Shown here: positions 19,503 through 45,376 of the stretch, one piece after another
How positions within the stretch are numbered: the first letter of the stretch is position 1
Layout: each line of letters opens with the position of its first letter
From: an uncultured Alistipes sp.
GTDB lineage: Bacteria > Bacteroidota > Bacteroidia > Bacteroidales > Bacteroidaceae
Assembly: GCA_963590505.1 (NCBI GenBank)
Contig: CAVAPC010000008.1
Location: 32,162 to 96,161 of the forward strand
Length of the DNA: 64,000 bases
Direction: 5' to 3'
Position numbers and translations under genes: made by a program
The notes under the pieces: model-generated
Database searches by the model: none
The model's input: the letters and a program-made list of their open reading frames with translations, nothing else
Told to the model about the DNA's origin: nothing

Positions 19503-20234
19503 ATGAAATACGCACTGATAACGGGAGCATCCCGCGGCATAGGCAAGGCCGTTGCACTAAGGCTGGCAGCCAAAGGCTATGCGGTGATAATAAACTATCT
19601 CAGCAATGAAAATGCCGCCAACGAAGTGGTTCGCGAGATTGCTGAAGCGGGGGGCAAAGCGGAATTGCTGCCGTTTGACACACAGAATGCCGCTGCAATA
19701 GAAACGGCGATAGACAAGTGGGAAACGGAACACCCCGAAGAATGGATATCAGTGCTGGTTAACAATGCCGGCGTCCGTCGCGACAACGTGATGTTTATGA
19801 TGTCTGACGAGGATTGGCAGACAGTGCTTGACACCAACCTCACAGGCTTCTTCCATATCACCCGCAGGCTGCTGAAGCATATGATGCCGCGCCGTCATGG
19901 AGGCAGAATAGTGAACATGGCTTCGCTTTCCGGGCTGAAGGGAATGCCGGGACAGGTGAACTACAGTGCGGCAAAGGCTGCACTGATAGGGGCGACCAAG
20001 GCTTTGGCTCAGGAGGTTGCACCCAGGAATATTACGGTGAACGCCGTTGCTCCCGGATTTATAGCAACCGACATGACGAAGGACCTTCCGCAGGATGAAC
20101 TGAAAAAGATGGTGCCGGCAGGACGCTTTGGCAAACCGGAAGAAGTGGCGGCGCTCGTGGACTTTCTCTGTTCCGATGAGGCGGCTTACATAACGGGCGA
20201 AGTGATAAACGTGAACGGCGGGCTCTATTCTTGA
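19503..20234 (+). CDS. fabG: 3-oxoacyl-ACP reductase (SDR, FabG / ApeQ-like ketoreductase)
   Basis: 243 aa. ALITGASRGIGKAVA (TGxxxGxG), NNAG, catalytic YSAAKAA (YxxxK), PGFIATDM. Confidence 0.9.
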   Translation: MKYALITGASRGIGKAVALRLAAKGYAVIINYLSNENAANEVVREIAEAGGKAELLPFDTQNAAAIETAIDKWETEHPEEWISVLVNNAGVRRDNVMFMMSDEDWQTVLDTNLTGFFHITRRLLKHMMPRRHGGRIVNMASLSGLKGMPGQVNYSAAKAALIGATKALAQEVAPRNITVNAVAPGFIATDMTKDLPQDELKKMVPAGRFGKPEEVAALVDFLCSDEAAYITGEVINVNGGLYS

Positions 20235-20261
20235 CAACAACGTAAAAAAAAACAAGTCGGT

Positions 20262-20930
20262 ATGAAAACGATGAAAAGTCTTGTATTGCTCATTTTCCTT
20301 GTGCTTGCCATGCAGACCAACGCACAAGAAGAGAACCTTGAGACAAAGACGGCTTTCCGCAAGGCAAAGGCAGTGGAGGTGAAAGTAGACTTGACAAAAA
20401 CGTCGTTTGCCGGTCTTGATTCGCTTTCGTTCGTTGAATACATGGCCGGGAAAGAAAACAAACCGGTGGCTTACGTAAGCAAGTTTTTCCATTTCTTCCG
20501 ACAAAGAATGATTGACAAGATGAACGCTGTATACAAGAACGGTTCGGCAGCAAAGAAATACACGCTGAGACAAAATCCGGCAGCAGAATTCCGCTTGGAT
20601 ATAGCCATAGACGAAATAACAGAGAATGCAGGCTTGAGAGGTTCTGCGAAGCTTTATCCTAAAAGCAACAATGGAAATGCTTTGGTTTATGACTTCAAAT
20701 TTAAAGACGGCCGCTGGAACAGTTTCGAAGAACTGCTGTATGAAGCAGCAGAGGCTTTGGGCAAAGATCTTGTCAAGGCTTTGAAAGCATATACATGTAA
20801 TTACCAATATCCAAACACTCTGCCTGGAGCGTTCAAACAGGGAGCAGACAATATAAAGCAGTCAGTGAAAAAAGCACAGGGCAAGTTTGTGGAAGCAGTG
20901 AAGGAGAACAATCCTTTCAAAAACGAATAA
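20262..20930 (+). CDS. small secreted protein, unknown function (member 1 of an apparent in-cluster paralog trio)
   Basis: 222 aa. Signal peptide MKTMKSLVLLIFLVLAMQTNAQ. Its motif order matches the ORFs at 22243 and 22875. Confidence 0.6.
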   Translation: MKTMKSLVLLIFLVLAMQTNAQEENLETKTAFRKAKAVEVKVDLTKTSFAGLDSLSFVEYMAGKENKPVAYVSKFFHFFRQRMIDKMNAVYKNGSAAKKYTLRQNPAAEFRLDIAIDEITENAGLRGSAKLYPKSNNGNALVYDFKFKDGRWNSFEELLYEAAEALGKDLVKALKAYTCNYQYPNTLPGAFKQGADNIKQSVKKAQGKFVEAVKENNPFKNE

Positions 20931-20974
20931 CAGTACATACGTTACTGAAGCAAGATAAAACGGCAAAAAGATAA

Positions 20975-22204
20975 ATGGAAAAGAGAGTAGTAATCACAGG
21001 TATGGGAATATGGTCGTGCCTTGGTACAGACCTGAATACCGTGAAAGAGGCGTTATATACAGGAAAGTCTGGCATCGGGATGCAGCCCGAACGCCTGACT
21101 TACGGCTATCGTTCGGCACTTACCGGCATAGTGGAAGAGCCGAAGATAACCAAGCAGATGCTGGACCGCCACACTCGTGCCGGAATGTCGGAAGAGGCAA
21201 AGTATGCATATATGGCAAGCAGACAGGCTTTCAGCCAGGCAGAAATAACCGACGAATATCTTCTTCAGAACGAGGTGGGATGTATCTTCGGAAACGATTC
21301 GTCGGCACAGCCTGTGATAGAGGCATCCAAGATCATGGACGAAAAGCATGATTCGGCGATGCTTGGCTACGGACTTATTTTCCAGTCGATGAACTCAACC
21401 GTGAACATGAACCTTAGCACGATTTTCCATCTTCGCGGCGTTAACTTCACGGTGAGCTCGGCTTGCGCTTCGGGAAGCCATTCCATAGGGCTTGGTTTCA
21501 TGATGATAAAACAGGGATTGCAGGACATGGTACTTTGCGGAGGAGCCCAGGAAACGAACTACTACTCTATGGCTTCGTTCGATGCACTAGGCGCATTCTC
21601 CGTGCGTATGGACGAACCGACAAAGGCGAGCCGTCCTTTCGACAAAGACCGCGACGGACTTATTCCAAGCGGCGGTGCGGCAGCTCTCGTGCTTGAGGAC
21701 TATGAACACGCAAAGGCGCGCGGTGCCGAAATCTTGGCAGAGGTTGTCGGTTACGGTTTCTCAAGCAATGGCGGAGGAATAAGCCAACCTTCAGACGATG
21801 GAAGCGTGCTTGCCATGAATCGTGCCCTTGACTGTGCTGGAGTAAAGGCGGACGATGTAGACTATATAAACGCACATGCTACAAGCACACATCAGGGAGA
21901 CATGTATGAAGCAATAGCACTCGACCGCATCTTCCACGGGAAACACGCTCTGATATCCTCCACAAAAGGAATGACTGGACATGAATGCTGGATGGCAGGA
22001 GCTTCAGAAATAGTTTACAGCACGCTGATGATGCAGAACAACTTTGTGGCTCCCAATGTTAACTTTGAGAATCCCGATGAATATTCGGAAAAGCTCAACA
22101 TCGCAGCCACTACAGTTGAAACGGAAATCAACACGGTTCTAAGCAACTCCTTCGGCTTCGGGGGAACAAACTCGGCATTGGTAATAAAGAAATTCAAAGA
22201 TTGA
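20975..22204 (+). CDS. beta-ketoacyl-ACP synthase (KAS I/II-like)
   Basis: 409 aa. VVITGMGIWS, active-site Cys in VSSACASGSHSIG, His in NAHATSTHQGD and MTGHECWMAG, C-terminal NSFGFGGTNSALV. Confidence 0.9.
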   Translation: MEKRVVITGMGIWSCLGTDLNTVKEALYTGKSGIGMQPERLTYGYRSALTGIVEEPKITKQMLDRHTRAGMSEEAKYAYMASRQAFSQAEITDEYLLQNEVGCIFGNDSSAQPVIEASKIMDEKHDSAMLGYGLIFQSMNSTVNMNLSTIFHLRGVNFTVSSACASGSHSIGLGFMMIKQGLQDMVLCGGAQETNYYSMASFDALGAFSVRMDEPTKASRPFDKDRDGLIPSGGAAALVLEDYEHAKARGAEILAEVVGYGFSSNGGGISQPSDDGSVLAMNRALDCAGVKADDVDYINAHATSTHQGDMYEAIALDRIFHGKHALISSTKGMTGHECWMAGASEIVYSTLMMQNNFVAPNVNFENPDEYSEKLNIAATTVETEINTVLSNSFGFGGTNSALVIKKFKD

Positions 22205-22242: not shown

Positions 22243-22773
22243 ATGAAAAAGAATTTAACCTTATTGCTATTCATGCTTGTAAGCATGGTTGCACTTGCAG
22301 GAAACCCTTTCAAAGGATTCACAGGAAAAGAAAATCTCAAGGAGATTATGGGAAGTGACGCAACGGCTCTGCTTGTATTCGATTGGAGCGAAGCCAAATA
22401 CGACTATACCAAAGATATAAAGGAAGGACTGAAGGATGACTACGACTTCGTTACAAGCGATTGCTTCAACAAGTTCCTGGAAGGTTTTAACCACAAGTCG
22501 AAACATCTGAAGCTGACAACAACCGAGAGCGGAGCAAAATACAAGTTCCTTCTCAAGGTAACGAACATAGACAAGCGCTTCCAGCCGTTTGCTTTCGTTC
22601 CAAAGCACGAAGGACTGATGTGGGGAAAGCTTGAAATCATTGAAGTGGAAACGAACAAAACACTTTCAACAATAGACATTATCAAGGCAATGGACGGAAC
22701 TGATTTTGTTCCGAAGGCTAGTTTTGGTGCAACATTCTATCTTGTAGGCGAAAACACCGCAAAACTCAAATAG
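22243..22773 (+). CDS. small secreted protein, unknown function (paralog trio member 2)
   Basis: 176 aa. Signal peptide MKKNLTLLLFMLVSMVALAG. Confidence 0.6.
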   Translation: MKKNLTLLLFMLVSMVALAGNPFKGFTGKENLKEIMGSDATALLVFDWSEAKYDYTKDIKEGLKDDYDFVTSDCFNKFLEGFNHKSKHLKLTTTESGAKYKFLLKVTNIDKRFQPFAFVPKHEGLMWGKLEIIEVETNKTLSTIDIIKAMDGTDFVPKASFGATFYLVGENTAKLK

Positions 22774-22874: not shown

Positions 22875-23408
22875 ATGAACAAAATATTATCAATTATAGC
22901 AGTATTCTTGCTGACACTTAGTGCAAATGCACAGAAAGTGATATTTGAAGGACAGGCACCGTCGCTGAAAGGAGAGAACAAACTGAACGTTGAGGTTGAC
23001 TTCTCGGAAATGAAAATAGACAAGAAGAACGTCAGTGACTGGTTGGAATTCAGACAATCGCAGCAACCAGACTACGATGCCAAGAAAGAACTTGAGGACG
23101 AACTCAAGCCAACCATTCTCGAACAACTGTGCTACGGATTGAACAGCACGCTAAAAAGGGCAAAAGCCTATGCCGTTATAGGTGCGCAGACCAACTATAC
23201 TGTTGTCGTAAAGCCTATGTCGGTAGAAAAGAAGGGTTCGAACGTGAACAAATGTTCCGTTGTTGACAAAAACGGCACAACGCTGATTGTTTTTGAAGTG
23301 AAAGGCAAAGGCGGAACTTTCGGCTCAATGGCAAATCTCTTTGGCGACGGTTACAAAGATACTGGCAAGAATCTGGGCAAAATATTGGCGGACTACATAA
23401 AAAAGTGA
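22875..23408 (+). CDS. small secreted protein, unknown function (paralog trio member 3)
   Basis: 177 aa. Signal peptide MNKILSIIAVFLLTLSANAQ. Confidence 0.6.
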   Translation: MNKILSIIAVFLLTLSANAQKVIFEGQAPSLKGENKLNVEVDFSEMKIDKKNVSDWLEFRQSQQPDYDAKKELEDELKPTILEQLCYGLNSTLKRAKAYAVIGAQTNYTVVVKPMSVEKKGSNVNKCSVVDKNGTTLIVFEVKGKGGTFGSMANLFGDGYKDTGKNLGKILADYIKK

Positions 23409-23442: not shown

Positions 23443-24540
23443 ATGAACCTATTCAAATCGGAAGAAGAACGTTACACAAAAGAACATTTGTCAGCTCGTG
23501 AGGCTCAGCGTCTGGCTGAGTTCATCGCATGGGGACCGGTGGTATTCCAAGTATCAAGGCTCATGGTCAAGTATGGCATACTTGATTTGTTGCGCGATAG
23601 CCTTGACGGGTTGACGCTTGGCGAGGTGCAGGCAAAGACAAGCTTCTCTGAATATGCTTTGAAGATACTCTTCGAAGCATCTCTCAGTGCAGGAACTGTG
23701 ATTATCGACAAGGAGACAGACCGCTTTTCATTGTCGAAAACAGGATGGTTTCTGCTCAACGACCCTGCCACTCGCGCCAACATGGATTTCAACCATGACG
23801 TGAACTATCGTGGAATGTTCTATCTTGACGAAGCACTTGAACAGGGAAAACCGGCGGGACTTAAAACGTTGGGAGGCTGGAACACCATATACGAGGGACT
23901 GTCGCAGCTTGAACCGCAGGTGCAGAAGAGTTGGTTCGGTTTTGATCACTTTTATAGCGATCACTCTTTTGATGTCGCTCTTGACACAGTGCTCGCAAAG
24001 AATCCAAAACGCATAATGGATGTCGGTGGCAACACCGGACGTTTTGCTTTGAAATGTGTGGAGCGCGATACCGATGTAACGGTGACCATTGTTGACTTGC
24101 CCGGGCAAATAAACATGATGCGCAAGAACATAGAAGGAAAGCCAGGGGCTAAGCGCATAGAGGGCTTTGCCACAGATATCCTTGACAAGCGGAACCTGTT
24201 GCCTTCAGGCAGTTGGGATGCAATATGGATGAGCCAGTTCCTTGACTGTTTCTCTGAAAATGAAATATTCAGCATCCTCTCACGGGCAGCAAGGCAGATG
24301 GACAAAAACACTACCTTATATATAATGGAGACATTCTGGGACAGACAGAAATACGAACCCGCTTCGTTTTGTCTGACTATGACCAGCGTATATTTCACTG
24401 TAATGGCAAACGGCAACAGTAAGATGTATCATTCCGATGACATGGCAAGACAGATAGAACGTGCCGGACTGGAAATAACGGCAGTTCACGATGGAATAGG
24501 CCAAGGACATACAATCATGGAGTGCAGAATTAAGGACTAA
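23443..24540 (+). CDS. class I SAM-dependent O-methyltransferase (ApeB-like)
   Basis: 365 aa. SAM motif I IMDVGGNTGRFA with the acidic post-I residue in VTIVDLPG. An N-terminal winged-helix / dimerisation-like region is typical of small-molecule O-methyltransferases. Confidence 0.75.
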   Translation: MNLFKSEEERYTKEHLSAREAQRLAEFIAWGPVVFQVSRLMVKYGILDLLRDSLDGLTLGEVQAKTSFSEYALKILFEASLSAGTVIIDKETDRFSLSKTGWFLLNDPATRANMDFNHDVNYRGMFYLDEALEQGKPAGLKTLGGWNTIYEGLSQLEPQVQKSWFGFDHFYSDHSFDVALDTVLAKNPKRIMDVGGNTGRFALKCVERDTDVTVTIVDLPGQINMMRKNIEGKPGAKRIEGFATDILDKRNLLPSGSWDAIWMSQFLDCFSENEIFSILSRAARQMDKNTTLYIMETFWDRQKYEPASFCLTMTSVYFTVMANGNSKMYHSDDMARQIERAGLEITAVHDGIGQGHTIMECRIKD

Positions 24541-24558: not shown

Positions 24559-24801
24559 ATGGAAAGAGCAGAAATAGAAGAAAAAGTAAGAAATTTCCTA
24601 ATCGATGACCTTGAAATAGACGAAGAAAAGATTGCTCCGGAAGCAAAGCTAAAGGATGATCTTGGCATTGACAGTCTGGATTTCGTTGACATCGTAGTTA
24701 TCGTGGAAAAGAATTTCGGCTTCAAGATAAAGCCAGAAGAGATGCAGGGCGTGGTGACGTTAAGTCAGTTCTGCGACTATATCGAGAGTAAGGTGGCATA
24801 G
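24559..24801 (+). CDS. acyl carrier protein
   Basis: 80 aa, acidic. Phosphopantetheine site DLGIDSLDFVDIV. Confidence 0.85.
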   Translation: MERAEIEEKVRNFLIDDLEIDEEKIAPEAKLKDDLGIDSLDFVDIVVIVEKNFGFKIKPEEMQGVVTLSQFCDYIESKVA

Positions 24802-24805
24802 AATA

Positions 24806-25675
24806 GTGAAGAATACAACTTTCGGCAACGGCTGGATGCATCGGCAGCTAGTGGCAACATTACGCTGGATGGACGTACGGCTTATCTACATCTTCACTGC
24901 TGTCTTTATAATACCCGTCTGTTTGTTGCTGAATACCAACCACAGCCGTACAACGGCATACCGGTATTTCAGAACAAGACAACGTTATGGACGATTGCAT
25001 GCTGCATGGGCAACGTATGTAAACCACTGTATGTTTGCGCAAGTGGTGGTTGACCGTTTCGCAATGTTTGCCGGTCAGAAATACAAAGTAAAAGTTGTGG
25101 GATACGAAAGTTTCAAATATCTTTCCGAACAACCCGAGGCTTTTATGCAGTTGAGCTCCCACATAGGTTGTTATGAAGTGGCAGGCTATTCGCTCAAGGC
25201 TGAGAAAAAACGTTTCAACGCTTTGGTGTTCGGCGGCGAAAAGAAAACCGTGATGGAAGGGCGAAAGCAACAGCTCGAACGCAACAACATTCGCATGATA
25301 CCCGTAATGCCGGACATGAGTCACCTTTTCGTTATAAACGAGGCTTTGGCTCAAAATGAAACGGTCAGCATGCCGGCCGACCGTATCGTCGGTTCTTCAA
25401 AATCTGTAACCGTTGAATTCTTCGGAGATGAGGCACGCTTACCGATGGGACCGTTTTCTGTAGCAACAATGCGCAGTTTGGACGTTATAGCAGTTAACGT
25501 CATGAAGACGTCGGTTAAGGGCTACACCATTTACATCACTCCGCTTGGCTACGACAAGGATGCGCCAAGAAAGGAGCAAATACGACAGTTGGCGCAAAGT
25601 TATGCGTCGGAACTGCAACGCATGGTGGAGCAATACCCAACACAATGGTATAATTTCCATGATTTCTGGGCATAG
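24806..25675 (+). CDS. LpxL/HtrB-family (lipid A-type) lysophospholipid acyltransferase, ApeD-like
   Basis: 289 aa. N-terminal TM segment and an HX4E-type motif SSHIGCYE. Size and position after an ACP match ape-type clusters. The start is uncertain: GTG at 24806 or ATG at 24838. Confidence 0.6.
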   Translation: MKNTTFGNGWMHRQLVATLRWMDVRLIYIFTAVFIIPVCLLLNTNHSRTTAYRYFRTRQRYGRLHAAWATYVNHCMFAQVVVDRFAMFAGQKYKVKVVGYESFKYLSEQPEAFMQLSSHIGCYEVAGYSLKAEKKRFNALVFGGEKKTVMEGRKQQLERNNIRMIPVMPDMSHLFVINEALAQNETVSMPADRIVGSSKSVTVEFFGDEARLPMGPFSVATMRSLDVIAVNVMKTSVKGYTIYITPLGYDKDAPRKEQIRQLAQSYASELQRMVEQYPTQWYNFHDFWA

Positions 25676-25692: not shown

Positions 25693-26154
25693 ATGACTTT
25701 CAATTCAACAAGTATACACGAGCAAGCATTAAGCAAGATTGACATTCATGAACTGTTGCCTCAGCAGGAACCTTTCGTGATGGTCGGCAGTCTAGTTAAA
25801 ATAGACGAGCGGATAACAGTGACGCAAACGGAAGTGAAAGGAAACAATATCTTTGTTGACGGAAATTTCCTGAGCGCATCGGGACTTGTAGAAAATATTG
25901 CGCAAACTTGTGCTGCCCGTATCGGTTATGTAAACAAATACATACTGAAAAAGGACATTCAGCTTGGTTTCATCGGCGCTATAAGAAACATGGAGATAAA
26001 AAGTTTGCCAGCCGTTGGCGACGTGATAGAAACAACCGTAGACGTTATCGAAGAGGTGTTCGGCATGACTCTTGCCAATGCGCGTGTTATGTGTAACGGC
26101 AAGACACTGGCAACAACAGAAATGAAGATTGCCATAAAGGAGAGTGCATCATGA
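25693..26154 (+). CDS. hotdog-fold 3-hydroxyacyl-ACP dehydratase (FabZ/ApeI-like)
   Basis: 153 aa. N-terminal LLPQQEPFVMVGSL resembles FabZ LLPHRYPFLLVD. Size fits a single hotdog domain. Confidence 0.6.
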   Translation: MTFNSTSIHEQALSKIDIHELLPQQEPFVMVGSLVKIDERITVTQTEVKGNNIFVDGNFLSASGLVENIAQTCAARIGYVNKYILKKDIQLGFIGAIRNMEIKSLPAVGDVIETTVDVIEEVFGMTLANARVMCNGKTLATTEMKIAIKESAS

Positions 26155-26576
26155 AGAAGATACTTAAAACATCGAAATTCTTCGAAGTGCGCTTCAGCGA
26201 GGTTGACTCGATGAATGTAGTATGGCATGGCTCATATCCGCTTTATTTCGAAGATGCCCGGGAGGCTTTTGGAAAGGAGTTCGGACTTGAATACATGGGC
26301 TTCTTCAAACATGGATATTTTGCTCCTCTCGTAGAACTGACATTCCATTACAAGAAACCAATCCGTTATGGAATGACACCGCGAATAGACATAATCTATC
26401 GCCCCACAGAGGCGGCAAAGATTGTGTTCGACTACGAAATTCATGACCCTTGCGACGATTCAATTATTGCCACAGGACATTCCGTTCAGGTTTTCATGGA
26501 TACACAGTACAATCTAGTGTGGGATAATCCTAAGTTCTATGAAGAGTGGAAGAAACATTGGGAACAAATAGAATAA
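26151..26576 (+). CDS. 4HBT/YbgC-type acyl-CoA/ACP thioesterase (ApeK-like)
   Basis: 141 aa. VRFSEVDSMNVVWHGSYPLYFEDAREAF matches the YbgC/4HBT signature (D...V.H..Y..YFE.AR). Its start overlaps the upstream stop (ATGA). Confidence 0.75.
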   Translation: MKKILKTSKFFEVRFSEVDSMNVVWHGSYPLYFEDAREAFGKEFGLEYMGFFKHGYFAPLVELTFHYKKPIRYGMTPRIDIIYRPTEAAKIVFDYEIHDPCDDSIIATGHSVQVFMDTQYNLVWDNPKFYEEWKKHWEQIE

Positions 26577-26591: not shown

Positions 26592-28337
26592 ATGGCATAT
26601 ATACTGTCTGACAACATTGTGTCGCCGTTAGGCTACACGTCGGCAGAGAACTATCAGGCTGTCAAGTCTGGACGTTCTTCACTTGCTGCTTATCCTGCAT
26701 CATTAAAAGCGGTGGGCGAAGATTTCTGTGCTTCGCTTTTCTGTGATGGGCAGAACAGTGAACTTGCCGTTGACGGGTTGTCATCTTTTGAATCAATAGT
26801 TTTCCGCTCTGCCGAAGTGGCAATGCGAAACTGCGGTTTGCAGACAGTTTGCAGAGAGAACGGCGGCACAACGCAGATGCCTTGTGCCAATGTCGTGTTT
26901 ATAATGAGTACAACAAAAGGCAATGCAGATTTAGAATCGCCGGCTGACAGTGCCCGCCGTATAGCTCGCCGCCTTGGTATAAACACTCGCCCTATTGTTG
27001 TATGCAATGCTTGCATATCAGGCTTGTCGGCAATTCTGCTGGCAAAACGCCTTATTGACGCTTCTGTCTATGACTACGCTGTAGTCTGTGGGGCTGACCG
27101 GCAAGGCCAATTCATAATTTCTGGCTTTCAGTCGCTCAAGGCACTGTCGCCAAAAGAATGCCGTCCTTTCGATATGGAGCGGCAAGGCTTGAACTTGGGA
27201 GAAGCAGCAGCGGCAATCGTAATAGGAAAGGAAAGCCAAAACGGAGCGCAATGGAAGATTGTAAGCGGTGCTATACGTAATGACGCATTTCATGTTAGTG
27301 CTCCTTCAAAGAAGGCGGATGGACTGTATTTGTCGTTGAAGCAGACTATTGGAAGAAGAAACACAGACAAGTTGGCTTTTGTAAACGCTCACGGTACGGC
27401 AACACTGTTCAACGACCAAATGGAGTCGGTTGCTTTAGACAGAATGTCACTTTGTGGTGTTCCCGTAAATGCGCTGAAAGGATATTATGGCCATACGATG
27501 GGGGCAGCAGGATTGTTGGAAACAATAATTTCCATGCATGCTGTAGATGACTGCACCGTTTTGTCAACACGAGGTTATGAAGAAAAAGGTGTGTCAGGGA
27601 AGCTTAGTATTGTGACAGAAAACAAGACGACTGACAAAAAAGACTTTGTCAAGATGTTGTCCGGTTTTGGCGGATGCAATGCTTCCGTATGGCTGAGCAA
27701 AAGCAACGAGAGTTGTGATAAAGAGACGATATACAGTCTTAGGCCAACGCACCGTGTTCTTATTACTCCTCAAAGTGTGGATGTAGACGGAAAAGGAATA
27801 GGCATAAAAGAAGGAAGTGACGATATTATTACGTCTTTGTACAAGCAGTTCGTAGGAGGGTATCCCAAATACTATAAAATGGACAAACTTTGTCGTTTGG
27901 GATTTGTTGCCACGGAGATGTTGTTGAAAGCGGAATGTGGTGCATTAGGCAGAGAGAATACGATAACGGCAAACAAAGTTGGCCATGAACCGGATTTAAA
28001 TGAAAATCGTTCTATAGTCCTGTTCAACCACTCGTCTTCTGTGGATTCAGACCGTAGGCACATGGAAGCTATAGCCGATAGCGACAACTATTTTCCAAGT
28101 CCGTCAGTGTTCGTCTATACTCTTCCCAATATTGTGACGGGAGAGATTGCGATGAAAAACGGTTATCATGGTGAAACATCTTTTTATTTACTTGACGAAC
28201 GAGATGACAAGATTATAAACAATGTTATTGGCACTGCATTTTCCGACGGTATGACACAGAGCGTGATAGGTGGTTGGATGAATTATGAAAGTGAAAATGA
28301 TTTTACGGCAGATATAAGCATATTTGTCAGAAAGTAA
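26592..28337 (+). CDS. beta-ketoacyl synthase with C-terminal CLF-like (ketoacyl-synt_2-like) extension
   Basis: 581 aa. Cys in VCNACISGLSAILLA, His in VNAHGTATLFND and YYGHTMGAAG. About 190 aa extra at the C-terminus contains FPSPSVFVYTLPNIVTGEIAMKNGYHG. Confidence 0.75.
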   Translation: MAYILSDNIVSPLGYTSAENYQAVKSGRSSLAAYPASLKAVGEDFCASLFCDGQNSELAVDGLSSFESIVFRSAEVAMRNCGLQTVCRENGGTTQMPCANVVFIMSTTKGNADLESPADSARRIARRLGINTRPIVVCNACISGLSAILLAKRLIDASVYDYAVVCGADRQGQFIISGFQSLKALSPKECRPFDMERQGLNLGEAAAAIVIGKESQNGAQWKIVSGAIRNDAFHVSAPSKKADGLYLSLKQTIGRRNTDKLAFVNAHGTATLFNDQMESVALDRMSLCGVPVNALKGYYGHTMGAAGLLETIISMHAVDDCTVLSTRGYEEKGVSGKLSIVTENKTTDKKDFVKMLSGFGGCNASVWLSKSNESCDKETIYSLRPTHRVLITPQSVDVDGKGIGIKEGSDDIITSLYKQFVGGYPKYYKMDKLCRLGFVATEMLLKAECGALGRENTITANKVGHEPDLNENRSIVLFNHSSSVDSDRRHMEAIADSDNYFPSPSVFVYTLPNIVTGEIAMKNGYHGETSFYLLDERDDKIINNVIGTAFSDGMTQSVIGGWMNYESENDFTADISIFVRK

Positions 28338-36756: not shown

Positions 36757-37662
36757 ATGGCATATATTCAAGGTACACAACAGCAGCGGATGATACGTGC
36801 ATTTGTACTGCTTGCGTTATTGGCTGCACCACTTTTAGTCCTGCGCTCACAGGTAAATATATGGCAGGGTACGCCTGGTCATTGCCGCGTGGAAATGACT
36901 CCATATCTTGCTCCAGGAAAAGGAAACGTAGCTGTTGTCATATGTCCTGGTGGAAGTTATTTTTGGCACGACATGCAGACAGAGGGGCATACAGTGGCGC
37001 GTTGGCTACAGATGAACGGCATTTCTGCTTTTGTATTGCGCTACCGTACAGCAATGGTGCCGGCTTTCGTGACGCATTACCGGTATGTGTTGCGCGGAAA
37101 CCGCTATCCTGATCCACAGGACGATTTGCGCCGTGCCATACTTTACATCAAGGCGCGCGCTGATCAATATGGTATTGATACGCGCAAAACAGGCGCAATG
37201 GGATTTTCGGCCGGTGGTCATCTGGTGATGTCTGCGGCAGAACTTTTCGACGGTACGGAACGCCCGGCATTTGTGGCTTCCATATATCCTGTGGTAACTA
37301 TGACGGAAAATTGTGTCCACAAACGCTCGCGCAGGGCACTGCTTGGTGACAACCGTAAGAACAACCGTCTCTTGCGGGATTCTCTCTCGCTGGAGCGCCA
37401 TGTACCTGCCGATTGTCCGCCTGTATTCCTTGTGAACTGCAAGGACGACCCTGTGGTGGACTATCGCAATTCCATTCTTCTTGATTCAGCGCTCACTGCT
37501 ATGGGTGTTCCTCACCGTTATATCCAATATTCGACAGGCGGCCATGGCTTTGGAGCATCAGATGAAAAGGGATCGTCAGAGTGCAGACAATGGAAAACAG
37601 AATTCCTTTCATGGCTTAAAGCCACATTGGATAATTTAACAAAAGAAACGACAAAACAATGA
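36757..37662 (+). CDS. secreted alpha/beta hydrolase (esterase/lipase-like)
   Basis: 301 aa. Signal-like N-terminus RAFVLLALLAAPLLVLRSQ, oxyanion-region ICPGGSYFW, nucleophile elbow GFSAGGH, and a late GGHGF providing a candidate His. Confidence 0.7.
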   Translation: MAYIQGTQQQRMIRAFVLLALLAAPLLVLRSQVNIWQGTPGHCRVEMTPYLAPGKGNVAVVICPGGSYFWHDMQTEGHTVARWLQMNGISAFVLRYRTAMVPAFVTHYRYVLRGNRYPDPQDDLRRAILYIKARADQYGIDTRKTGAMGFSAGGHLVMSAAELFDGTERPAFVASIYPVVTMTENCVHKRSRRALLGDNRKNNRLLRDSLSLERHVPADCPPVFLVNCKDDPVVDYRNSILLDSALTAMGVPHRYIQYSTGGHGFGASDEKGSSECRQWKTEFLSWLKATLDNLTKETTKQ

Positions 37663-38789
37663 CAGACACAGAATTTGACGACATCCGTCCTTACTACGAA
37701 AGCGAGATACCTGCCGCTATGCAGCGTATAGCAGCCAGTCGTTCATTTCCTATCCTTGCCTCATATGTTTATCCTGACGAGCCGCTCGATAAGGTGAAAC
37801 TCCGTATAGCATCATATACAACAGTGCGTGACTTCCAGACAGAAACTATGGCACTTGTCAATGAGCGCGTTATCGAAGGCAGTACTGAAGGCTATGAGTG
37901 TGCAGGCTTGGACCGTCTTGTCCCAGGCAAGCCATATCTCTATGTGTCCAATCACCGTGATATAATGCTCGATTCCAGTTTGCTTCAGTATTCATTGGTG
38001 CGGCATGGTTTCGATACCACAGAGATTACCTTCGGCGCTAACCTGATGATGAACGAACTTGTGATAGACATTGGCAAGAGCAACAAAATGTTCCGTGTTG
38101 AGCGGCCCGGCGGTAGTGCAAAAGAGTTCTATCGTAGCTCACGCCATTTGTCTGACTACATTCGCCATGTGTTGTGCGAAAAGAAAAGTTCCGTGTGGAT
38201 AGCCCAACGCAATGGACGCACAAAAGACGGCAACGACCTTACCGATCAGGGCATAATAAAGATGTTTTGCATGAGTCATCCAACCGACAAAATAAGAGCT
38301 ATTTCCGAACTCAATATAGTGCCGGTGAGCATATCATACGAATGGGAGCCTTGCGACGTATTGAAAACGCTGGAACTTTATGAGTCGCAATTTGCACAGT
38401 ATACCAAGAAGCCTGGCGAAGACTTGAACAGCATTCTGACAGGCATAGTGCAGAAGAAAGGACATGTACACATGGAACTGTGTAAGCCGTTGCAACTTGA
38501 GGAACTTGAGGCTTTAGACACGCTCACGAATAACGAATACCACAAGGCGGTAGCGGCGCTTATCGATAAACGGATACACACAGCATACAGACTTTATCCC
38601 AATAACTTCATTGCCCATGATTTGAGATACGGCTCCACGAAGTATTCCGACAGATACACACCGGAACAGAAAGCGGCATTTATGAAGCGAGTTGAACGCC
38701 TTACATATTACGACACGTGCAACATTGATCAGCTTACCGATATATTCCTTGGCATTTACGCCAATCCGGTGAGGAAAGAAAACGCTTGA
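37659..38789 (+). CDS. PlsC-family (1-acyl-sn-glycerol-3-phosphate-type) acyltransferase
   Basis: 376 aa. HX4D motif SNHRDIMLD, followed by FGANLM and AQRNGRTKDG blocks. ATGA overlap with the upstream gene. Confidence 0.65.
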   Translation: MTDTEFDDIRPYYESEIPAAMQRIAASRSFPILASYVYPDEPLDKVKLRIASYTTVRDFQTETMALVNERVIEGSTEGYECAGLDRLVPGKPYLYVSNHRDIMLDSSLLQYSLVRHGFDTTEITFGANLMMNELVIDIGKSNKMFRVERPGGSAKEFYRSSRHLSDYIRHVLCEKKSSVWIAQRNGRTKDGNDLTDQGIIKMFCMSHPTDKIRAISELNIVPVSISYEWEPCDVLKTLELYESQFAQYTKKPGEDLNSILTGIVQKKGHVHMELCKPLQLEELEALDTLTNNEYHKAVAALIDKRIHTAYRLYPNNFIAHDLRYGSTKYSDRYTPEQKAAFMKRVERLTYYDTCNIDQLTDIFLGIYANPVRKENA

Positions 38790-38873: not shown

Positions 38874-41800
38874 ATGACAGAACTCATTATACGAATATAT
38901 TCACACTTGCGGAAACATCGCTTGCTGGCAACGGCATCGTTCCTGTTAGTCACGTCAGTGCTTGTGTTGTCAGTGATGAGGATGTCTTACAAGGAGGATA
39001 TTGCAGATTTCCTGCCACTTGACGGTAACAGCGGCAAAGCACTAAAAGTTTATCAGAACATTGCGGGAGCTGACAAAATCATCGCTGTTTTCCAGTATCG
39101 TGATACAACGAATGCCGAACCGGACACTATGGTAGCTGCAATTGAAAGCTATATAAGTGGACTGGCACAGCGTGACACCGCGCATCTGATAGCAGGTGTT
39201 ACGGCTCAGGTGGATATGGAAAAAATAACAGGACTTACTGACTTCGTCTATTCAAACATTCCGTATTTCCTTACCGAAGCCGACTACACGCGTATGGACT
39301 CGCTTCTTGCAGATTCTGGCTACATCACGAAACAACTGCAAGCCGACATGCAAATGCTTATGTTTCCATCGGGAGGATTGCTGACCGATAATATCAGCCG
39401 TGACCCGTTAAACTTGTTTACTCCTATTGTAGAGAAACTTCAGCATACAGGCAACGGAATGCGTTATGAGATGTATGACGGATACATATTCTCGCCCGAC
39501 ATGCAGCGTGCTATCGTTATCATTGATTCTCCTTTCGGCGGAAGTGAGACGGAAAACAACTCACGCCTTGTGAAGTTGCTTGAAGATGAGGCAGGCAATA
39601 TGCGAACGGCTCATCCCGCAATTGACGTGCACCTGACGGGCGGGCCTGTGATAGCTGTGGGCAATGCGCAGCGTATAAAGACTGACAGTATATTGTCAGT
39701 AGCTATTGCCGTAACGCTAATTCTATTGCTGCTTTATCTGTCGTTCCGTAGTCTGCGAAATCTGTTGCTTATCGCCGTTTCCATTGCATGGGGATGGCTG
39801 TTTGCCATGGGGTTACTTGCGGTGATACACGACAGTGTTTCTATAATAGTTGTAGGCATATCCTCTGTGATTGTGGGCATAGCGGTGAACTATCCGCTTC
39901 ATTTTATTGCCCATCTCTCGCATACTCCCGACAAACGTAAAGCTCTTCGCGAGATTGTCATGCCGCTTGTGGTTGGTAACGTGACTACAGTGGGCGCATT
40001 TCTGGCATTGGTGCCTCTGCAGTCGGTGGCCATGCGCGATCTCGGATTGTTCAGCTCATTCCTGCTCATAGGCACAATACTCTTTGTTCTGCTTTTCCTT
40101 CCCCACGTAACGAATGTGAAGAAGCATAAGGAAAAACACCTGTTCAGCCGTATTGGCGATGTGTCGTTGGAGAATAAACCTGTTGTTGTGATTATAGTAG
40201 CTGTGCTTACGCTTGTGTTTGGATATTTCAGCTTTGATACGCGCTTTGATACCAACATGAGTCATATCAACTATATGACAGATGAACAAAAGGCTGATAT
40301 GGCTTATTTTCAACATGCCATGACGGAAGCTGGCTCGCTGCCAAAGGTGTATGCACTCTCCAATGCTTCTACCGTGCACGAGGCTCTCGACAGCAGTGCA
40401 ATGCGGCAGCATTTGTTCAGCGAACTGCTCGATTCTGGGCTTGTTGTGAGCCATGCTGGATGCAAACAGTTCCTCTCGTCTGAAGCAGAACAACGTATAA
40501 GGCTAAAGAGATGGAATCGTTTCGTTGCTGAGCATGCCGCACAGCTTAAGTCGCAACTCGCAACGGCAGCGGTTGATGAAGGTTTCACCACAGGGTCGTT
40601 CGATGCGTTCAGTGAAATTATCGACGGCAGTTATAAGCCAAAACCTGTCGGTTGTTTCGGCATATTGACAAAGTCGGCGTTTGCATCAAACGTGAGCGCT
40701 GGCGATGATGGCACTTGCTCTGTTGTGGACATTCTGACAGTGAAACCTGAGAATGTGAAAAGGGTAGAGCAATGGCTTGAGGAACACGGTTGCTACAGTT
40801 TCGATGTGGAAAGCATGAACAGTGCTCTTGCCGACAATCTGTCTGACGACTTCAACTATATTGGCTGGGCATGTGGTTGCATAGTGTTCTTTTTCCTGTG
40901 GCTCTCGCTTGGCAGTATAGAGCTTGCTATACTTTCGTTCGTTCCTATGGCGGTGAGTTGGTTGTGGATACTGGGAATAATGGCGTTGTGCGGAATACAG
41001 TTCAACATTGTTAACGTGATTCTTGCCACGTTCATCTTCGGACAAGGTGACGACTATACTATATTTATGACAGAAGGAGCCAGTTACGAATACGCTTACC
41101 GGCGCAAGATGCTGGCGTCATACAAAAATTCCATCATTATCTCTGCTTTAATCATGTTCATTGGCATAGGAACGCTTATTGTTGCGCGTCATCCGGCTCT
41201 GCGCTCGCTTGCCGAAGTAACTATTGCAGGTATGTTCTCCGTGGTGCTTATGGCTTATCTGTTCCCGCCGCTGATATTCAATTTCCTTGTGCGTTCTTCT
41301 GGCGTATACAGGCTTCGCCCTGTAAGCCTCGTGCCTTTGTTGCGTATGGTTTACTCCGCCACGATATTCTTCGTTCAGCTTGCCACGGTGTACGTTTTGG
41401 GAATATTCCTTTTTGAAATTACAGGGAAGACAGAACGAAAGACGCTCTTATTCCGCCGTTATGTGCGCCGCCTTTACTCATGGGATCTCAATCATATTCC
41501 TGGTGTGAAGCTTTCTGTCAACAATCCGTATGGCGACAGAGCTTTCGATAGCCCAGCAGTTGTAGTGTGCAACCATCAGTCGATGCTTGATGCAGCAGTA
41601 TTTATGATGCTCAGCGACAAAACTGTACTTGTGGCAAACAACAATCCAAGTTCCAGCCGTATCGTAGGGACAGTGTTCAAATGGATGGACTTCGTGAATA
41701 TATCGCAGGAGGATATTACTGATATCACTCGTTTTGAACGGCTCGTTGACAAGGGCTACAGCATTGTGATGTTCCCGGAAGGGGCACGTAGCGACTATTC

Positions 41801-42377
41801 GTCTGTAACTCGTTTCCACAAGGGAGCGTTCTATCTTGCAGAGAAACTTGGATTGGACGTGCTGCCCGTTGTTATTCATGGCTTCAATCATGTGGTTCCC
41901 CGCAATAGTGTGTGTGTCTACAAAGGGTGCGCGACCATTGATGTAGGAGAACGTGTAACATGTGAAATGCAGAAAGAATGGGGAGGATATGCCGAGACAA
42001 CACGCCGCATTCATGCTTATTATGTGGCGAATTACCGGCGTATTGCCGACCGTGTTGAGACAGCCGGCTATTGCGCCGAACTGGTGAAAGACCGTTATCG
42101 CTACAAGGGAGTAGACATTTTCAATACGGTGAAAAACAACCTTAAACGCAATTCAAACTATGCGGCTGATGTAGAGACGGCTCGCGGATTGGACGAAATA
42201 AAACTGGTTAATTCTGGTTATGGTGAGAAAGCTCTGCTTATGGCTCTCGCCTTGCCGCAGACAAGATTTGTTGTAGTGGAGAAAGATGCGGAGGTGGCAG
42301 ATGTCCTGCGTTACAGCGCAGAAGGAATTGCTTCAAACCTGAAAGTAGTTTTACAGAAAAGTGAACAGACTGACTAA
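38874..42377 (+). CDS. MMPL/RND-type exporter fused to a PlsC-type acyltransferase and a short methyltransferase-like tail (ApeM-like core)
   Basis: 1167 aa. Two clusters of TM helices (about residues 270-420 and 650-800) are separated by soluble domains, as in MMPL/RND exporters. PlsC motifs follow: VVCNHQSMLD (about residue 899) and MFPEGARSD (about residue 966). Rossmann-like motif KLVNSGYGE and then FVVVEKD sit near the C-terminus. Confidence 0.8.
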   Translation: MTELIIRIYSHLRKHRLLATASFLLVTSVLVLSVMRMSYKEDIADFLPLDGNSGKALKVYQNIAGADKIIAVFQYRDTTNAEPDTMVAAIESYISGLAQRDTAHLIAGVTAQVDMEKITGLTDFVYSNIPYFLTEADYTRMDSLLADSGYITKQLQADMQMLMFPSGGLLTDNISRDPLNLFTPIVEKLQHTGNGMRYEMYDGYIFSPDMQRAIVIIDSPFGGSETENNSRLVKLLEDEAGNMRTAHPAIDVHLTGGPVIAVGNAQRIKTDSILSVAIAVTLILLLLYLSFRSLRNLLLIAVSIAWGWLFAMGLLAVIHDSVSIIVVGISSVIVGIAVNYPLHFIAHLSHTPDKRKALREIVMPLVVGNVTTVGAFLALVPLQSVAMRDLGLFSSFLLIGTILFVLLFLPHVTNVKKHKEKHLFSRIGDVSLENKPVVVIIVAVLTLVFGYFSFDTRFDTNMSHINYMTDEQKADMAYFQHAMTEAGSLPKVYALSNASTVHEALDSSAMRQHLFSELLDSGLVVSHAGCKQFLSSEAEQRIRLKRWNRFVAEHAAQLKSQLATAAVDEGFTTGSFDAFSEIIDGSYKPKPVGCFGILTKSAFASNVSAGDDGTCSVVDILTVKPENVKRVEQWLEEHGCYSFDVESMNSALADNLSDDFNYIGWACGCIVFFFLWLSLGSIELAILSFVPMAVSWLWILGIMALCGIQFNIVNVILATFIFGQGDDYTIFMTEGASYEYAYRRKMLASYKNSIIISALIMFIGIGTLIVARHPALRSLAEVTIAGMFSVVLMAYLFPPLIFNFLVRSSGVYRLRPVSLVPLLRMVYSATIFFVQLATVYVLGIFLFEITGKTERKTLLFRRYVRRLYSWDLNHIPGVKLSVNNPYGDRAFDSPAVVVCNHQSMLDAAVFMMLSDKTVLVANNNPSSSRIVGTVFKWMDFVNISQEDITDITRFERLVDKGYSIVMFPEGARSDYSSVTRFHKGAFYLAEKLGLDVLPVVIHGFNHVVPRNSVCVYKGCATIDVGERVTCEMQKEWGGYAETTRRIHAYYVANYRRIADRVETAGYCAELVKDRYRYKGVDIFNTVKNNLKRNSNYAADVETARGLDEIKLVNSGYGEKALLMALALPQTRFVVVEKDAEVADVLRYSAEGIASNLKVVLQKSEQTD

Positions 42378-42407: not shown

Positions 42408-43733
<1,326 letters not shown>

Positions 43734-43809
43734 CCTTTCGAAACAAAGTTATTGAAGCTTGCAACCGCTGACGTTTGAACTACGATTGAAAATCATTAAA
43801 ACACCGATT

Positions 43810-44037
43810 ATGAAAGAAAGAATAAGACAAATACTGGACGAGGCACTGCCGCTGGTTAACCTTGACTCCGATTTCCTTTTCAACGAACTTGATTCGCTTG
43901 GCATTACAACCATACTCATGCTCCTTTCTGAGGAGTATGGCGTGCAGCTTGAATCGTCTGACGTGACACCGCGCAATTTCCGTTCGCTCGAGTCACTCGC
44001 AGCAATGGTGAAGAAGAAGTTGGACGATAAAGCATAA
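43810..44037 (+). CDS. carrier protein (ACP / aryl-carrier-like) paired with the adenylating enzyme
   Basis: About 75 aa from MKERIRQ (the ORF is open from 43759). Phosphopantetheine-type motif FNELDSLGITTILML. Confidence 0.7.
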   Translation: MKERIRQILDEALPLVNLDSDFLFNELDSLGITTILMLLSEEYGVQLESSDVTPRNFRSLESLAAMVKKKLDDKA

Positions 44038-44041
44038 TATA

Positions 44042-45376
44042 GTGACGATGCTTACGCTTGAGGATTATCTTGAGAAAAATGCCCGTGAAATACCGGATAA
44101 ACTTGCTGTAATAAGTGGTTCGCAGAGGTTGACTTACAGCCAGCTCTACTTGAAAGCAGCAGAGCGCGCCGCACGAATTTGTATAAAAGAAAGGATTGTG
44201 CCGTTCCGTGCTACTCAGGATGCGGAGTTTCTTGTTGAATATTTTGCCTTGCACATGGCAGACAAAGTGGCAATGCCCTTGGAAAGGGATATACCCGACT
44301 GCCTTTTCGACAAGTGTGTGCGGATGGCAGAAGAAAATGAAGTGGCAGATGGTGCGGCCGACGTACTCTTCACAACGGGAACTACCGGCAGTTCGAAAGG
44401 TGTCGTGGTAAGTAAGGAAACCATCATCGCTAATGCAGAAAATCTTATAGAGGCACAGGGGTACGACAGAACTCTAACATTCATAATATGTGGGCCGCTG
44501 AATCACATAGGCTCTTTGTCTAAAGTTTATCCGACAATTGTTGTGGGTGGGACTATTCATATCCTTGAAGGGATGAAGCGTATGGACGATTTTTTCCTTG
44601 CCGCAGAATTGGCAGAAGGCAAGGTGGCAACTTTCCTTGTGCCTGCGAGCATACGAATGATGCTGGCTTTCGGTTCAGAAAGGTTGGCGGCGTTGGCGGG
44701 GAAGATTGCTTTTGTTGAAACTGGAGCAGCACCGATTGCCGTTGCCGATATGCGGCGCTTGTGTGAAGTTTTGCCAAAGAGCAGGCTTTTCAATACATAT
44801 GCCTCAACAGAGACAGGAATAATTGCTACATACGATTACAAGGCAGGCGGATGTATTGCAGGTTGCCTGGGACGTCCAATGCGCCATTCTTCTGTCGTAA
44901 TAACAGCCGAGGGCTACGTGGCATGCAAGGGACGTACGCTAATGATGGGTTATTTGGGAGATGAAAAACAGACGGCGCAAGTGTTGCGTGGCGGCATGCT
45001 TGTGACTTCAGATATAGGGCATATGGACGCAGAGGGAAGACTTATACTTGAAGGACGCAGCAACGACGTGATTAACGTGGGCGGATATAAGGTTGTCCCT
45101 ACAGAGGTGGAGAATGTTGCTATGGCGTTGCCGCAGGTTGCCGACTGCTTGTGTGTTCCTGCTAATCATGCTGTGTTGGGTACAGTTCTGAAGCTTGTTG
45201 TCGTACCGGCAGAGAATTGTGAATTCGACAGGCGCGTTATTGCGCAATCGTTGAAAGCCTCGCTTGAAACTTACAAAGTGCCGATGCTTTATGAGCAGGT
45301 AACGGAAATACGCCGTACGTTCAACGGAAAGCCTGACAGGAAAAGTTATCTTCCTTCAGTTACATCTTGGATGTGA
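44042..45376 (+). CDS. AMP-dependent synthetase/ligase (adenylate-forming enzyme, ApeH-like starter activation)
   Basis: 444 aa. AMP-binding P-loop LFTTGTTGSSKGVV, YASTETG, TSDIG, GGYKV and a C-terminal NGKPDRK lysine motif. Start is GTG at 44042 or ATG at 44048. Confidence 0.85.
   Translation: MTMLTLEDYLEKNAREIPDKLAVISGSQRLTYSQLYLKAAERAARICIKERIVPFRATQDAEFLVEYFALHMADKVAMPLERDIPDCLFDKCVRMAEENEVADGAADVLFTTGTTGSSKGVVVSKETIIANAENLIEAQGYDRTLTFIICGPLNHIGSLSKVYPTIVVGGTIHILEGMKRMDDFFLAAELAEGKVATFLVPASIRMMLAFGSERLAALAGKIAFVETGAAPIAVADMRRLCEVLPKSRLFNTYASTETGIIATYDYKAGGCIAGCLGRPMRHSSVVITAEGYVACKGRTLMMGYLGDEKQTAQVLRGGMLVTSDIGHMDAEGRLILEGRSNDVINVGGYKVVPTEVENVAMALPQVADCLCVPANHAVLGTVLKLVVVPAENCEFDRRVIAQSLKASLETYKVPMLYEQVTEIRRTFNGKPDRKSYLPSVTSWM

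Follow-up and report, generated by a model that had tools for sequence, protein, structure and literature searches.

Aryl-polyene (APE) clusters are among the most abundant classes of biosynthetic gene clusters (BGCs) in gut, oral and rumen metagenomes, with 2,800 of them in 8,160 rumen genomes (10.1101/2020.05.19.105130), and a flexirubin 'gene cluster cloud' extends over five of six Bacteroidetes classes (PMC9248904). Genome mining has revealed APE or 'flexirubin-homologue' BGCs in oral Prevotella, namely P. denticola (PMC13455363) and P. oralis (PMC6469967), and in Prevotella from rumen genomes (10.1101/2020.05.19.105130); such clusters are reported from gut microbiomes as well. Examples from this genus are expressed and have been linked to feed efficiency and caries (10.1101/2020.05.19.105130; PMC13455363). 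Here we describe a run of 26 genes (o1 to o26, positions 19503-45376) in a 64,000-nucleotide stretch of DNA from an uncultured Alistipes sp. (contig CAVAPC010000008.1), the whole of which we call the window, and compare it with the described APE and flexirubin systems.

The solved structure of the Xenorhabdus APE-lipid consists of an APE esterified to GalNAc-1-phosphate-glycerol that bears a conjugated fatty acyl chain (bioRxiv 10.1101/2020.12.19.423268). According to the same study, ApeE carries the chromophore during its assembly, which begins with a 4-hydroxyphenyl starter, and ApeF does so for a second acyl chain, the conjugated fatty one. The latter is transferred by ApeD to a lysophospholipid, the phosphate of which receives GalNAc from ApeJ; ApeJ afterwards also acylates this sugar with the APE, and export of the lipid falls to ApeM, ApeL and ApeN. 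ApeH of Escherichia coli adenylates 4-hydroxybenzoate and loads it on an acyl carrier protein (ACP) without a CoA intermediate (PMC8253772). As for flexirubin clusters, the ligase FlxY of Chitinophaga pinensis is annotated as F390-synthetase-like (PMC3992019), and its Flavobacterium johnsoniae counterpart Fjoh_1075 as a phenylacetate-CoA ligase. The LolA2 and LolB2 proteins have been reported in flexirubin-type loci only, and in F. johnsoniae their genes are adjacent (Fjoh_1084 beside Fjoh_1085; PMC11885536).

We consider it likely that the region analyzed here is one operon, of a gut or rumen Prevotella, that makes and exports an APE lipid, and that it represents the form which the 'flexirubin-like' Bacteroidota branch of the APE family takes in Prevotellaceae. 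Judged by its genes, the Prevotellaceae architecture, of which the window holds a complete and well-bounded example, is a distinct sub-type: it lacks the defining features of flexirubin clusters proper and has most of those that mark the APE family. The cluster type as such is common and already catalogued; what is unusual is its loading module and the esterase genes built into it.

Class assignment of the cluster

Three products score above the curated cut-offs of NCBIfam flexirubin equivalog models: the ketoreductase o1 (FlxB_rubin_SDR, 397 bits vs. 340), the methyltransferase o6 (FlxJ_fam_MTase, 604 bits vs. 560) and the carrier o15 (LolA2_flexi). Direct BLASTP of the window proteins against the experimentally studied apeA-R proteins of E. 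coli CFT073 gave matches for 14 of them, covering ApeB/C/D/E/F/I/J/K/L/M/O/Q/R. The alignment of o6 with ApeB extends over 355 aa (E 1e-104) and that of o3 with ApeR over the full length (E 1e-73); o3 falls below both the FabB and the FabF equivalog cut-offs. Of the APE core set of Grammbitter et al., which further comprises the ApeI/ApeP dehydratases, we found an ApeO-type ketosynthase (KS) with an ApeC-type chain-length factor (CLF), an ApeR-like KS, two ACPs and the counterparts of ApeQ and ApeM.

The KS o13 matches ApeO (E 7e-58) and the structure of X. doucetiae ApeO (PDB 6qsp, E 3e-53), and its C-terminus matches ApeC (E 3e-8). As o11 aligns with o13 through residue 532 (E 9e-39) and its extension thus covers the CLF-like part of o13, the cluster encodes two KS-CLF fusions. 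Other counterparts include o15 of ApeL, o10 of ApeK and o17 of ApeI (34% identity over 61 aa, E 4e-7), the match of o17 to PF22818 being weak. In o18 the family 2 glycosyltransferase (GT2) half resembles ApeJ (E 1e-34) and the protein also matches ApeD (E 1e-13), with an HX4D motif at residue 347; in o23 the N-terminal part is similar to ApeM (E 3e-10) and is accompanied by an ApeD-like domain. All three ACPs carry the DS(L/I) attachment-serine motif, and export signals are predicted on seven products.

A preliminary description of this DNA, made from its letters alone, had proposed the aryl-polyene/flexirubin class, which is upheld by the three equivalogs, the BLASTP matches to apeA-R products and the flx gene order. 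The inventory that it drew up agrees with the Pfam and NCBIfam results, including one LpxL-type and three PlsC-type acyltransferase domains, the GT2, LolA, EamA and MMPL proteins, and the Cys-His-His residues that it ascribed to three KS are intact in o3, o11 and o13. Some of its entries have to be refined. The count of three KS stands, but two of them are the KS-CLF fusions, which had been missed. What was listed as an O-methyltransferase is indeed a methyltransferase, yet its identity differs: it is the ApeB/FlxJ orthologue, predicted to methylate the aryl head group in chromophore synthesis. One of the three PlsC-type domains, that of o22, is marginal and has no HX4D, and the LolA-like carrier is followed on its 3' side by a LolB2-like gene absent from that list. 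Accessory genes outside the canonical set had been noted as well. Two genes for secreted hydrolases of feruloyl-esterase families lie within the operon, one as part of its conserved core.

Two proteins of this set deserve a separate remark. The protein o22 bears NHRDIMLD in place of the canonical HX4D, yet is kept in 77 of 81 related loci. A protein identical to o9 in two other loci (L086/L087) carries a precomputed PF22817 'ApeP-like' label, whereas our own hmmscan of Pfam-A returned nothing for o9 even at E <= 5; the discrepancy may come from a version or filtering difference between the two Pfam copies.

Proposed pathway and alternative explanations

The sole adenylating enzyme of the window is o26 (PF00501/PF13193); no PaaK/F390-synthetase-type ligase equivalent to FlxY was found there, FlxY being compared by annotation only. 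In the Pfam scan E. coli ApeH is a 452-aa PF00501 protein, and o26 is likewise a PF00501 protein of similar size, with the gene of an ACP (o25) next to its own. It is kept in 69 of 81 loci by tblastn. In function the o26/o25 pair thus appears to correspond to loading by ApeH, and o26 appears to be a remote ApeH homologue. The aromatic ammonia-lyase family (PF00221) has no match among the ORFs of at least 150 aa in the window, and the 4-methylideneimidazole-5-one (MIO) signature of these enzymes is absent from the six-frame translation of the window and 81 related loci, 1.69 Mb in total. Neither a KAS III protein by best family nor a peptidase C45 (DarA/DarB, FlxW) is encoded by the 26 ORFs or the flank ORFs. 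The earlier observation that MIO-type ammonia-lyases and DarA/DarB are missing in cis therefore holds for the window, and for MIO it extends to the 81 loci.

Gene content, homologies, synteny and conservation were observed directly, and they allow a pathway to be proposed whose starter, chain length, anchor and individual enzymatic steps are all predictions. In this scheme o26 would activate either 4-hydroxybenzoate or a hydroxycinnamate as the aromatic acid and load it on o25, in parallel to the CoA-independent loading of ApeE by ApeH. Chain extension would fall to the FabB-like KS o3 and the KS-CLF fusions o11 and o13, with the ACPs o12 and o7 as carriers of the malonyl units, and the ketoreductase o1 together with the ApeP/ApeI-like dehydratases o9/o17 would process each cycle to give a conjugated polyene. 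The aryl ring would be methylated by o6, and the polyene modified by the CrtI-like flavoenzymes o19/o20. The thioesterase o10, the acyltransferases o8, o18 (C-terminal part), o22 and o23 (C-terminal part) and the GT2 of o18 are candidates for attaching the chromophore to an anchor of the sugar-phosphate-glycerolipid type at the inner membrane, probably along with a second acyl chain. The MMPL domain of o23, o14, which is possibly a subunit of a lipid-linked sugar flippase, and the LolA2/LolB2 pair o15/o16 would then carry the lipid to the outer membrane, and the secreted hydrolases o21 (core) and o24 (accessory) would act outside the cytoplasm.

The domain types of the Xenorhabdus ApeD, ApeJ, ApeM and ApeL scheme are all present in the window, although fused differently. 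By analogy with that system, the product is likely a ring-methylated aryl-polyene acyl chain on a glyco- or phospholipid anchor, exported by MMPL and LolA2/LolB2. The methylated aromatic head group is argued from the presence of the ApeB/FlxJ orthologue, and a glyco-/phospholipid anchor rather than a dialkylresorcinol from the absence of FlxW and DarAB in cis. This agrees with the suggestion, already made in the preliminary description, of an acyl chain on a glycero- or glycolipid anchor destined for the outer membrane, which matches the solved Xenorhabdus APE-lipid. The numbers of KS-CLF fusions (two) and ACPs (three) would agree with the synthesis of more than one chain.

Several observations weigh against an APE lipid as the product. 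The similarity of o26 to ApeH is collinear but low (21% identity, E ~1e-4 in a relaxed search), and its best PDB matches are MenE, DltA, FadD, feruloyl-CoA synthetase and 4-coumarate-CoA ligase (4CL), with E from 1e-24 to 1e-17; these five enzyme types score alike, so that the matches do not discriminate between possible substrates of o26. As to supply of an aromatic starter, neither a tyrosine ammonia-lyase (TAL) nor a chorismate lyase/chorismatase was recognised in the window. In the PDB search o3 is nearer to housekeeping FabB structures than to those of ApeR. For o9 the support comprises weak FabZ matches (PDB FabZ-type dehydratases, E 0.006) and the one precomputed Pfam label, and o16 reaches 27 bits with the LolB2 model, the cut-off of which is 60. 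Finally, our literature search found no structure for any Prevotella or other Bacteroidales product, in line with the earlier remark that the molecules of host-associated Prevotella/Bacteroides-type clusters have no defined structure.

One alternative is a pathway without any aryl head group. Only a conjugated or polyunsaturated fatty acyl chain, like the Xenorhabdus C26:5, would then be made, and o25/o26 would resemble DltA/DltC or FadD in loading an amino acid or a fatty acid. The spread of o26 scores over DltA, FadD and MenE as well as aromatic-acid ligases, the missing starter supply and the very FabB-like o3 would all fit such a pathway. We nevertheless regard it as unlikely, given that o6 is a full-length orthologue of ApeB/FlxJ, and deletion of apeB gives desmethyl aryl head groups (bioRxiv 10.1101/2020.12.19.423268); moreover, o12 is closely related to ApeE, the ACP carrying the aryl chain, and the KS-CLF arrangement is that used for APE. 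A true flexirubin, i.e., a polyene esterified to a dialkylresorcinol, with TAL, 4-coumarate ligase and DarA/DarB encoded elsewhere in the genome, appears very unlikely. It would account for the flx gene order and for the FlxB, FlxJ and LolA2 equivalogs; the dar genes of C. pinensis themselves lie in a separate locus, and in oral taxa APE BGCs are often accompanied by resorcinol BGCs (PMC13455363). However, FlxW, proposed to couple the polyene to the dialkylresorcinol, is missing from the otherwise flx-ordered cluster together with a FlxY-type ligase, FlxA and FlxK; the 1.69 Mb of related loci hold no MIO signature, a different loading pair (o25/o26) is conserved instead, and the GT2, PlsC and LpxL anchor genes suggest a lipid anchor as in the APE-lipid.

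The preliminary description had also considered that profile searches might place the KS, ACP and dehydratase genes in housekeeping fatty acid synthesis (FAS) or in a known lipid pathway. The KS, ketoreductase, dehydratases and ACPs do belong to FAS families, and o1 also passes the FabG model and o7 a generic ACP model. In spite of this, flexirubin-specific models score best, the KS lie far under the FabF and FabB equivalog cut-offs (338 vs. 494 and 375 vs. 630, respectively), and no family match to FabD, FabH, FabI, FabK or another enoyl reductase was found in the window; the models for ornithine-lipid and lipid A acyltransferases stay far below their cut-offs. Hence, on the curated cut-offs and the missing genes, we rejected housekeeping FAS and the lipid A, ornithine-lipid and sulfonolipid pathways, to which we assign next to no probability.

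Operon structure, conservation and secreted hydrolases

The ORF listing of the window contains exactly 26 consecutive plus-strand ORFs between 19503 and 45376 (Table 1), as had been noted before, with the same seven start/stop overlaps, at 26151, 30463, 31422, 31822, 33743, 35242 and 37659. The largest intergenic gaps are 101 bp (5' of 22875) and 84 bp (5' of 38874); the third one given earlier, of 76 bp, is recovered if the third ACP begins at the ATG chosen by gene callers (75 aa) and not at the mechanical TTG at 43759. The good -7 box at 19461 was found again, but calling it single slightly overstated the case, as a second intergenic plus-strand match to TAnnTTTG lies at 22825-22832, within the 101-bp gap and 43 nt before the o5 start, and may represent an internal promoter 5' of the fifth gene. 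With 44 occurrences against 49 expected, the motif shows no enrichment in the window, and a sigma-70 promoter scan of the region gave nothing useful, the model being irrelevant for Bacteroidota. At the other end, the strong bidirectional terminator was confirmed, none of 200 shuffled sequences folding as well.

Table 1. Genes and regulatory features of the cluster, with positions in the window
Feature	Position	Strand	Support
Bacteroidota-type -7 promoter box TAtcTTTG	19461..19468	+	consensus TAnnTTTG; 35 nt upstream of first ATG; position is the sole support
o1, short-chain dehydrogenase/reductase (SDR) ketoreductase, FlxB/ApeQ type	19503..20234	+	FlxB_rubin_SDR; ApeQ 43% full length
o2, secreted 222-aa protein, no family, near-orphan	20262..20930	+	signal peptide; no Pfam/NCBIfam match
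o3, FabB-like KS, FlxC/ApeR type, Cys-His-His	20975..22204	+	PF00109/PF02801; ApeR 35%
o4, secreted 176-aa protein, no family	22243..22773	+	signal peptide; no matches
o5, secreted 177-aa protein, no family, variable accessory gene	22875..23408	+	no credible matches
o6, SAM methyltransferase, FlxJ/ApeB orthologue (predicted aryl head-group methylation)	23443..24540	+	FlxJ_fam_MTase; ApeB 44%
o7, ACP, ApeF-like/FlxD	24559..24801	+	PF00550; ApeF 42%; DSLD motif
o8, LpxL-type acyltransferase, FlxE	24806..25675	+	PF03279; ApeJ residues 318-549 (C-terminal half), E 3e-15
o9, hotdog dehydratase, ApeP-like/FlxF	25693..26154	+	weak FabZ matches; precomputed PF22817 label
o10, 4HBT thioesterase, ApeK/FlxH	26151..26576	+	PF13279; ApeK 32%
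o11, KS (Cys-His-His) with CLF-like C-terminal extension, FlxI+FlxL equivalent	26592..28337	+	PF00109/PF02801; ApeO-like
o12, ACP, ApeE-like/FlxM	28385..28645	+	PRK09184 77.7 bits vs. cut-off 70; ApeE 52%
o13, KS-CLF fusion, ApeO+ApeC / FlxN+FlxO	28670..30475	+	PF00109/PF02801 + PF13723 (residues 443-570)
o14, EamA/ArnE-ArnF-like small membrane protein with 4 transmembrane (TM) segments	30463..30816	+	PF00892; ArnE, ArnF matches below cut-off
o15, LolA2 flexirubin-cluster periplasmic carrier, ApeL-like	30824..31447	+	LolA2_flexi 231 bits vs. 125; signal peptide
o16, LolB2-like protein, FlxR position	31422..31838	+	adjoins LolA2; LolB2_flexi 27 bits vs. cut-off 60
o17, hotdog dehydratase, ApeI-like/FlxS	31822..32202	+	PF07977; weak PF22818; PDB 6qsr match
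o18, GT2 (polyprenyl-/lipid-phosphate sugar transferase type) fused to PlsC acyltransferase, ApeJ N-terminus + ApeD / FlxT	32215..33750	+	PF00535 + PF01553
o19, CrtI/CrtD-family flavoenzyme, FlxV type	33743..35245	+	PF01593; crtI_fam match below cut-off
o20, second CrtI/CrtD-family flavoenzyme, o19 paralogue	35242..36753	+	PF01593; 32% identity to o19
o21, secreted BD-FAE-family alpha/beta-hydrolase, core gene	36757..37662	+	PF20434; PDB 6a6o, 7dwc; signal peptide
o22, divergent acyltransferase-like protein	37659..38789	+	PF01553 24.9 bits vs. cut-off 23; no HX4D
o23, MMPL/RND exporter fused to PlsC acyltransferase, FlxU	38874..42377	+	PF03176 + PF01553; ~13 TM; HX4D at residue 901
o24, CE1 ferulic-acid esterase, CBM48-like N-terminus, lipoprotein signal, accessory	42411..43733	+	PF00756; PDB 8bbp, 6rzn, E 3e-81
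o25, third ACP, adenylase partner	43759..44037	+	PF00550; DSLG motif; gene callers start ~43810 (75 aa, e.g., L001, L083)
o26, short PF00501 adenylate-forming enzyme, candidate starter acyl-ACP synthetase	44042..45376	+	PF00501 + PF13193; 444 aa
Bidirectional intrinsic terminator hairpin	45462..45525	.	dG -31.7 kcal/mol, z -6.0; A-run and T-run on its sides

The arrangement is repeated in three independent assemblies of the same Prevotella species: GCA_963612425.1 and GCA_963641465.1 span the 5' flank and genes 1-15, and GCA_963641035.1 spans genes 19-26 and the 3' flank. The flanks contain genes for rhamnogalacturonan-type glycan degradation (GH141, a rhamnosidase, a GH2 with malectin domain, beta-helix proteins), along with a TonB-dependent receptor, a GDSL esterase and a hybrid two-component regulator, so that the setting among pectin-degradation genes proposed earlier fits at the level of Pfam families. 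Three large flank ORFs have no known function: an 890-aa (5564-8236) and a 408-aa (50605-51831) product without a Pfam match, and one of 1021 aa (57688-60753), which is mostly DUF6298 (717 bits).

With o19 as query and one genome per species, we obtained 432 relatives, of which the best 80 were examined. These come from rumen, gut and mouth and belong almost without exception to Prevotellaceae, among them P. denticola, P. jejuni, P. aurantiaca, P. amnii and Hallella colorans. By tblastn of the 26 proteins, o6-o23, o25 and o26 are conserved and syntenic across ~80 Prevotellaceae loci, with o14 kept in 72 of 81. As for the 5' block, a relative of 58% identity (L084) keeps o2, o3 and an o4-like gene, followed by the methyltransferase gene onward, and L038 likewise has an o4-like gene at this place, while o5 is absent from L084, L031 and L020. 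Only three relatives of o2 were found in 5.8e9 proteins; weak o2-like paralogues are located inside the clusters of L043 and L063, between o21 and o22. A relaxed Pfam search of o2, o4, o5, o16, the C-terminus of o11 and the termini of o23 yielded no credible family.

Two of the related loci show altered organization. In the reduced L038 (CADCBZ010000012.1), the thioesterase gene leads directly to that of the ApeI-like dehydratase, and the KS-CLF genes, LolA2/LolB2, o21 and the full exporter are not present. The rearranged L031 has no intact o11, and an extra inverted dehydratase pair follows its shortened exporter. It should also be mentioned that many titles of metagenome-assembled genome records in the '..._cleanbin_...' series refer to taxa that are unrelated (Oscillibacter, Akkermansia muciniphila, Lachnospiraceae, Sphaerochaetaceae, Eggerthellaceae). 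This concerns L007, L010, L012-L014, L016, L018, L019, L021, L025, L028, L033, L036, L040, L050, L055, L059 and L061, the contigs of which bear a cluster of this Prevotella type, with protein identities of 65-78%; the organism names appear unreliable there.

Of the two secreted hydrolases, o21 has the distribution of a core gene in this Prevotellaceae type of cluster. Of the 81 loci 78 carry it, its place between o20 and o22 does not vary, the GxSxG nucleophile is retained in 77 of 77, and in the window its stop codon overlaps the o22 start. The protein belongs to the BD-FAE family, named after a bifunctional feruloyl/acetyl-xylan esterase (PMC8165983), and we found no discussion of such a conserved hydrolase in the APE/flexirubin literature examined. 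The distribution of o24 is patchy: it occurs in 20 of 81 loci, in two sequence classes (57-84% and 41-46% identity), close relatives of carriers being without the gene, and wherever the position could be checked it occupies the slot between the exporter gene and that of the ACP. Such a fixed-slot, two-class pattern points to repeated loss or replacement rather than to a single accidental insertion. Carriers with o24 in this slot include L002, L009, L017, L035 and L045; in P. jejuni (L035) the gene is split into two ORFs by an ATG-only caller, which may indicate a pseudogene.

It is tempting to relate these hydrolases to the loading module. Tentatively, and with rather little confidence, one can imagine that o21 and o24 free p-coumarate or ferulate from dietary xylan or pectin and that o26/o25 loads the acid as aryl starter in place of TAL and 4CL. 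If so, the production of an outer-membrane polyene lipid would depend on diet, and a link between plant phenolics and an outer-membrane antioxidant lipid would tie fibre degradation to cell-envelope chemistry in a dominant gut genus. Alternatively, both enzymes may act on the product itself, as periplasmic deacylases or transacylases beside the MMPL exporter, since an APE-sugar ester is a vinylogous feruloyl-sugar ester. Ag85, also a CE1 protein, works with MmpL3.

Comparison with characterised systems

The order of genes in the window is collinear with flxB-flxV of the C. pinensis DSM 2588 flxA-flxY cluster (MIBiG BGC0000839; Table S4, PMC3992019). In common with C. pinensis and F. johnsoniae UW101 (Fjoh_1075-1110), it follows the succession SDR-KS-ACP-LpxL acyltransferase-dehydratase-thioesterase-KS-methyltransferase-ACP-KS/CLF-LolA2-LolB2(-like)-dehydratase-GT2-exporter/acyltransferase-CrtI-like reductase. 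In contrast to these flexirubin clusters, the window is devoid of the TAL FlxA, the halogenase FlxK, the CE4 deacetylase FlxP, the C45 Ntn-hydrolase FlxW, the phosphopantetheinyl transferase FlxX, the PaaK/F390-type 4-coumarate-CoA ligase FlxY and DarA/DarB. In turn, it has features that flexirubin clusters do not have: KS and CLF joined in one polypeptide, a second CrtI-like gene in addition to the one known from flx, the BD-FAE hydrolase, the CE1 esterase, the EamA protein, a PF00501 adenylase accompanied by a separate ACP and three small secreted proteins without a family.

With the proteobacterial APE clusters of E. coli CFT073 and Xenorhabdus doucetiae, the window shares the anchor domain types (GT2, PlsC, LpxL-like) and MMPL/LolA export, at protein identities of 25-52%. 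The domains have been shuffled, however: the GT2 is fused to PlsC in the window but to an LpxL-like domain in ApeJ, and the MMPL protein of the window is fused to PlsC. ApeG, ApeA and the DUF3261 protein ApeN have no counterparts in the window, a LolB2-like protein standing in the place of ApeN, whereas CrtI-like enzymes and secreted esterases are added.

The two hydrolases resemble the CE1/BD-FAE esterases of Bacteroidota polysaccharide utilization loci (PDB 6rzn/8bbp; PMC8165983) in being secreted and keeping GxSxG, o21 as a member of PF20434 and o24 with the same CBM48-like N-terminus. Yet, in contrast to those esterases, they sit in a lipid/polyketide operon, where o21 is translationally coupled to an acyltransferase gene. 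The cluster departs from the two characterised models in its different loading module, the absence of a dialkylresorcinol route and its duplicated CrtI-like enzymes.

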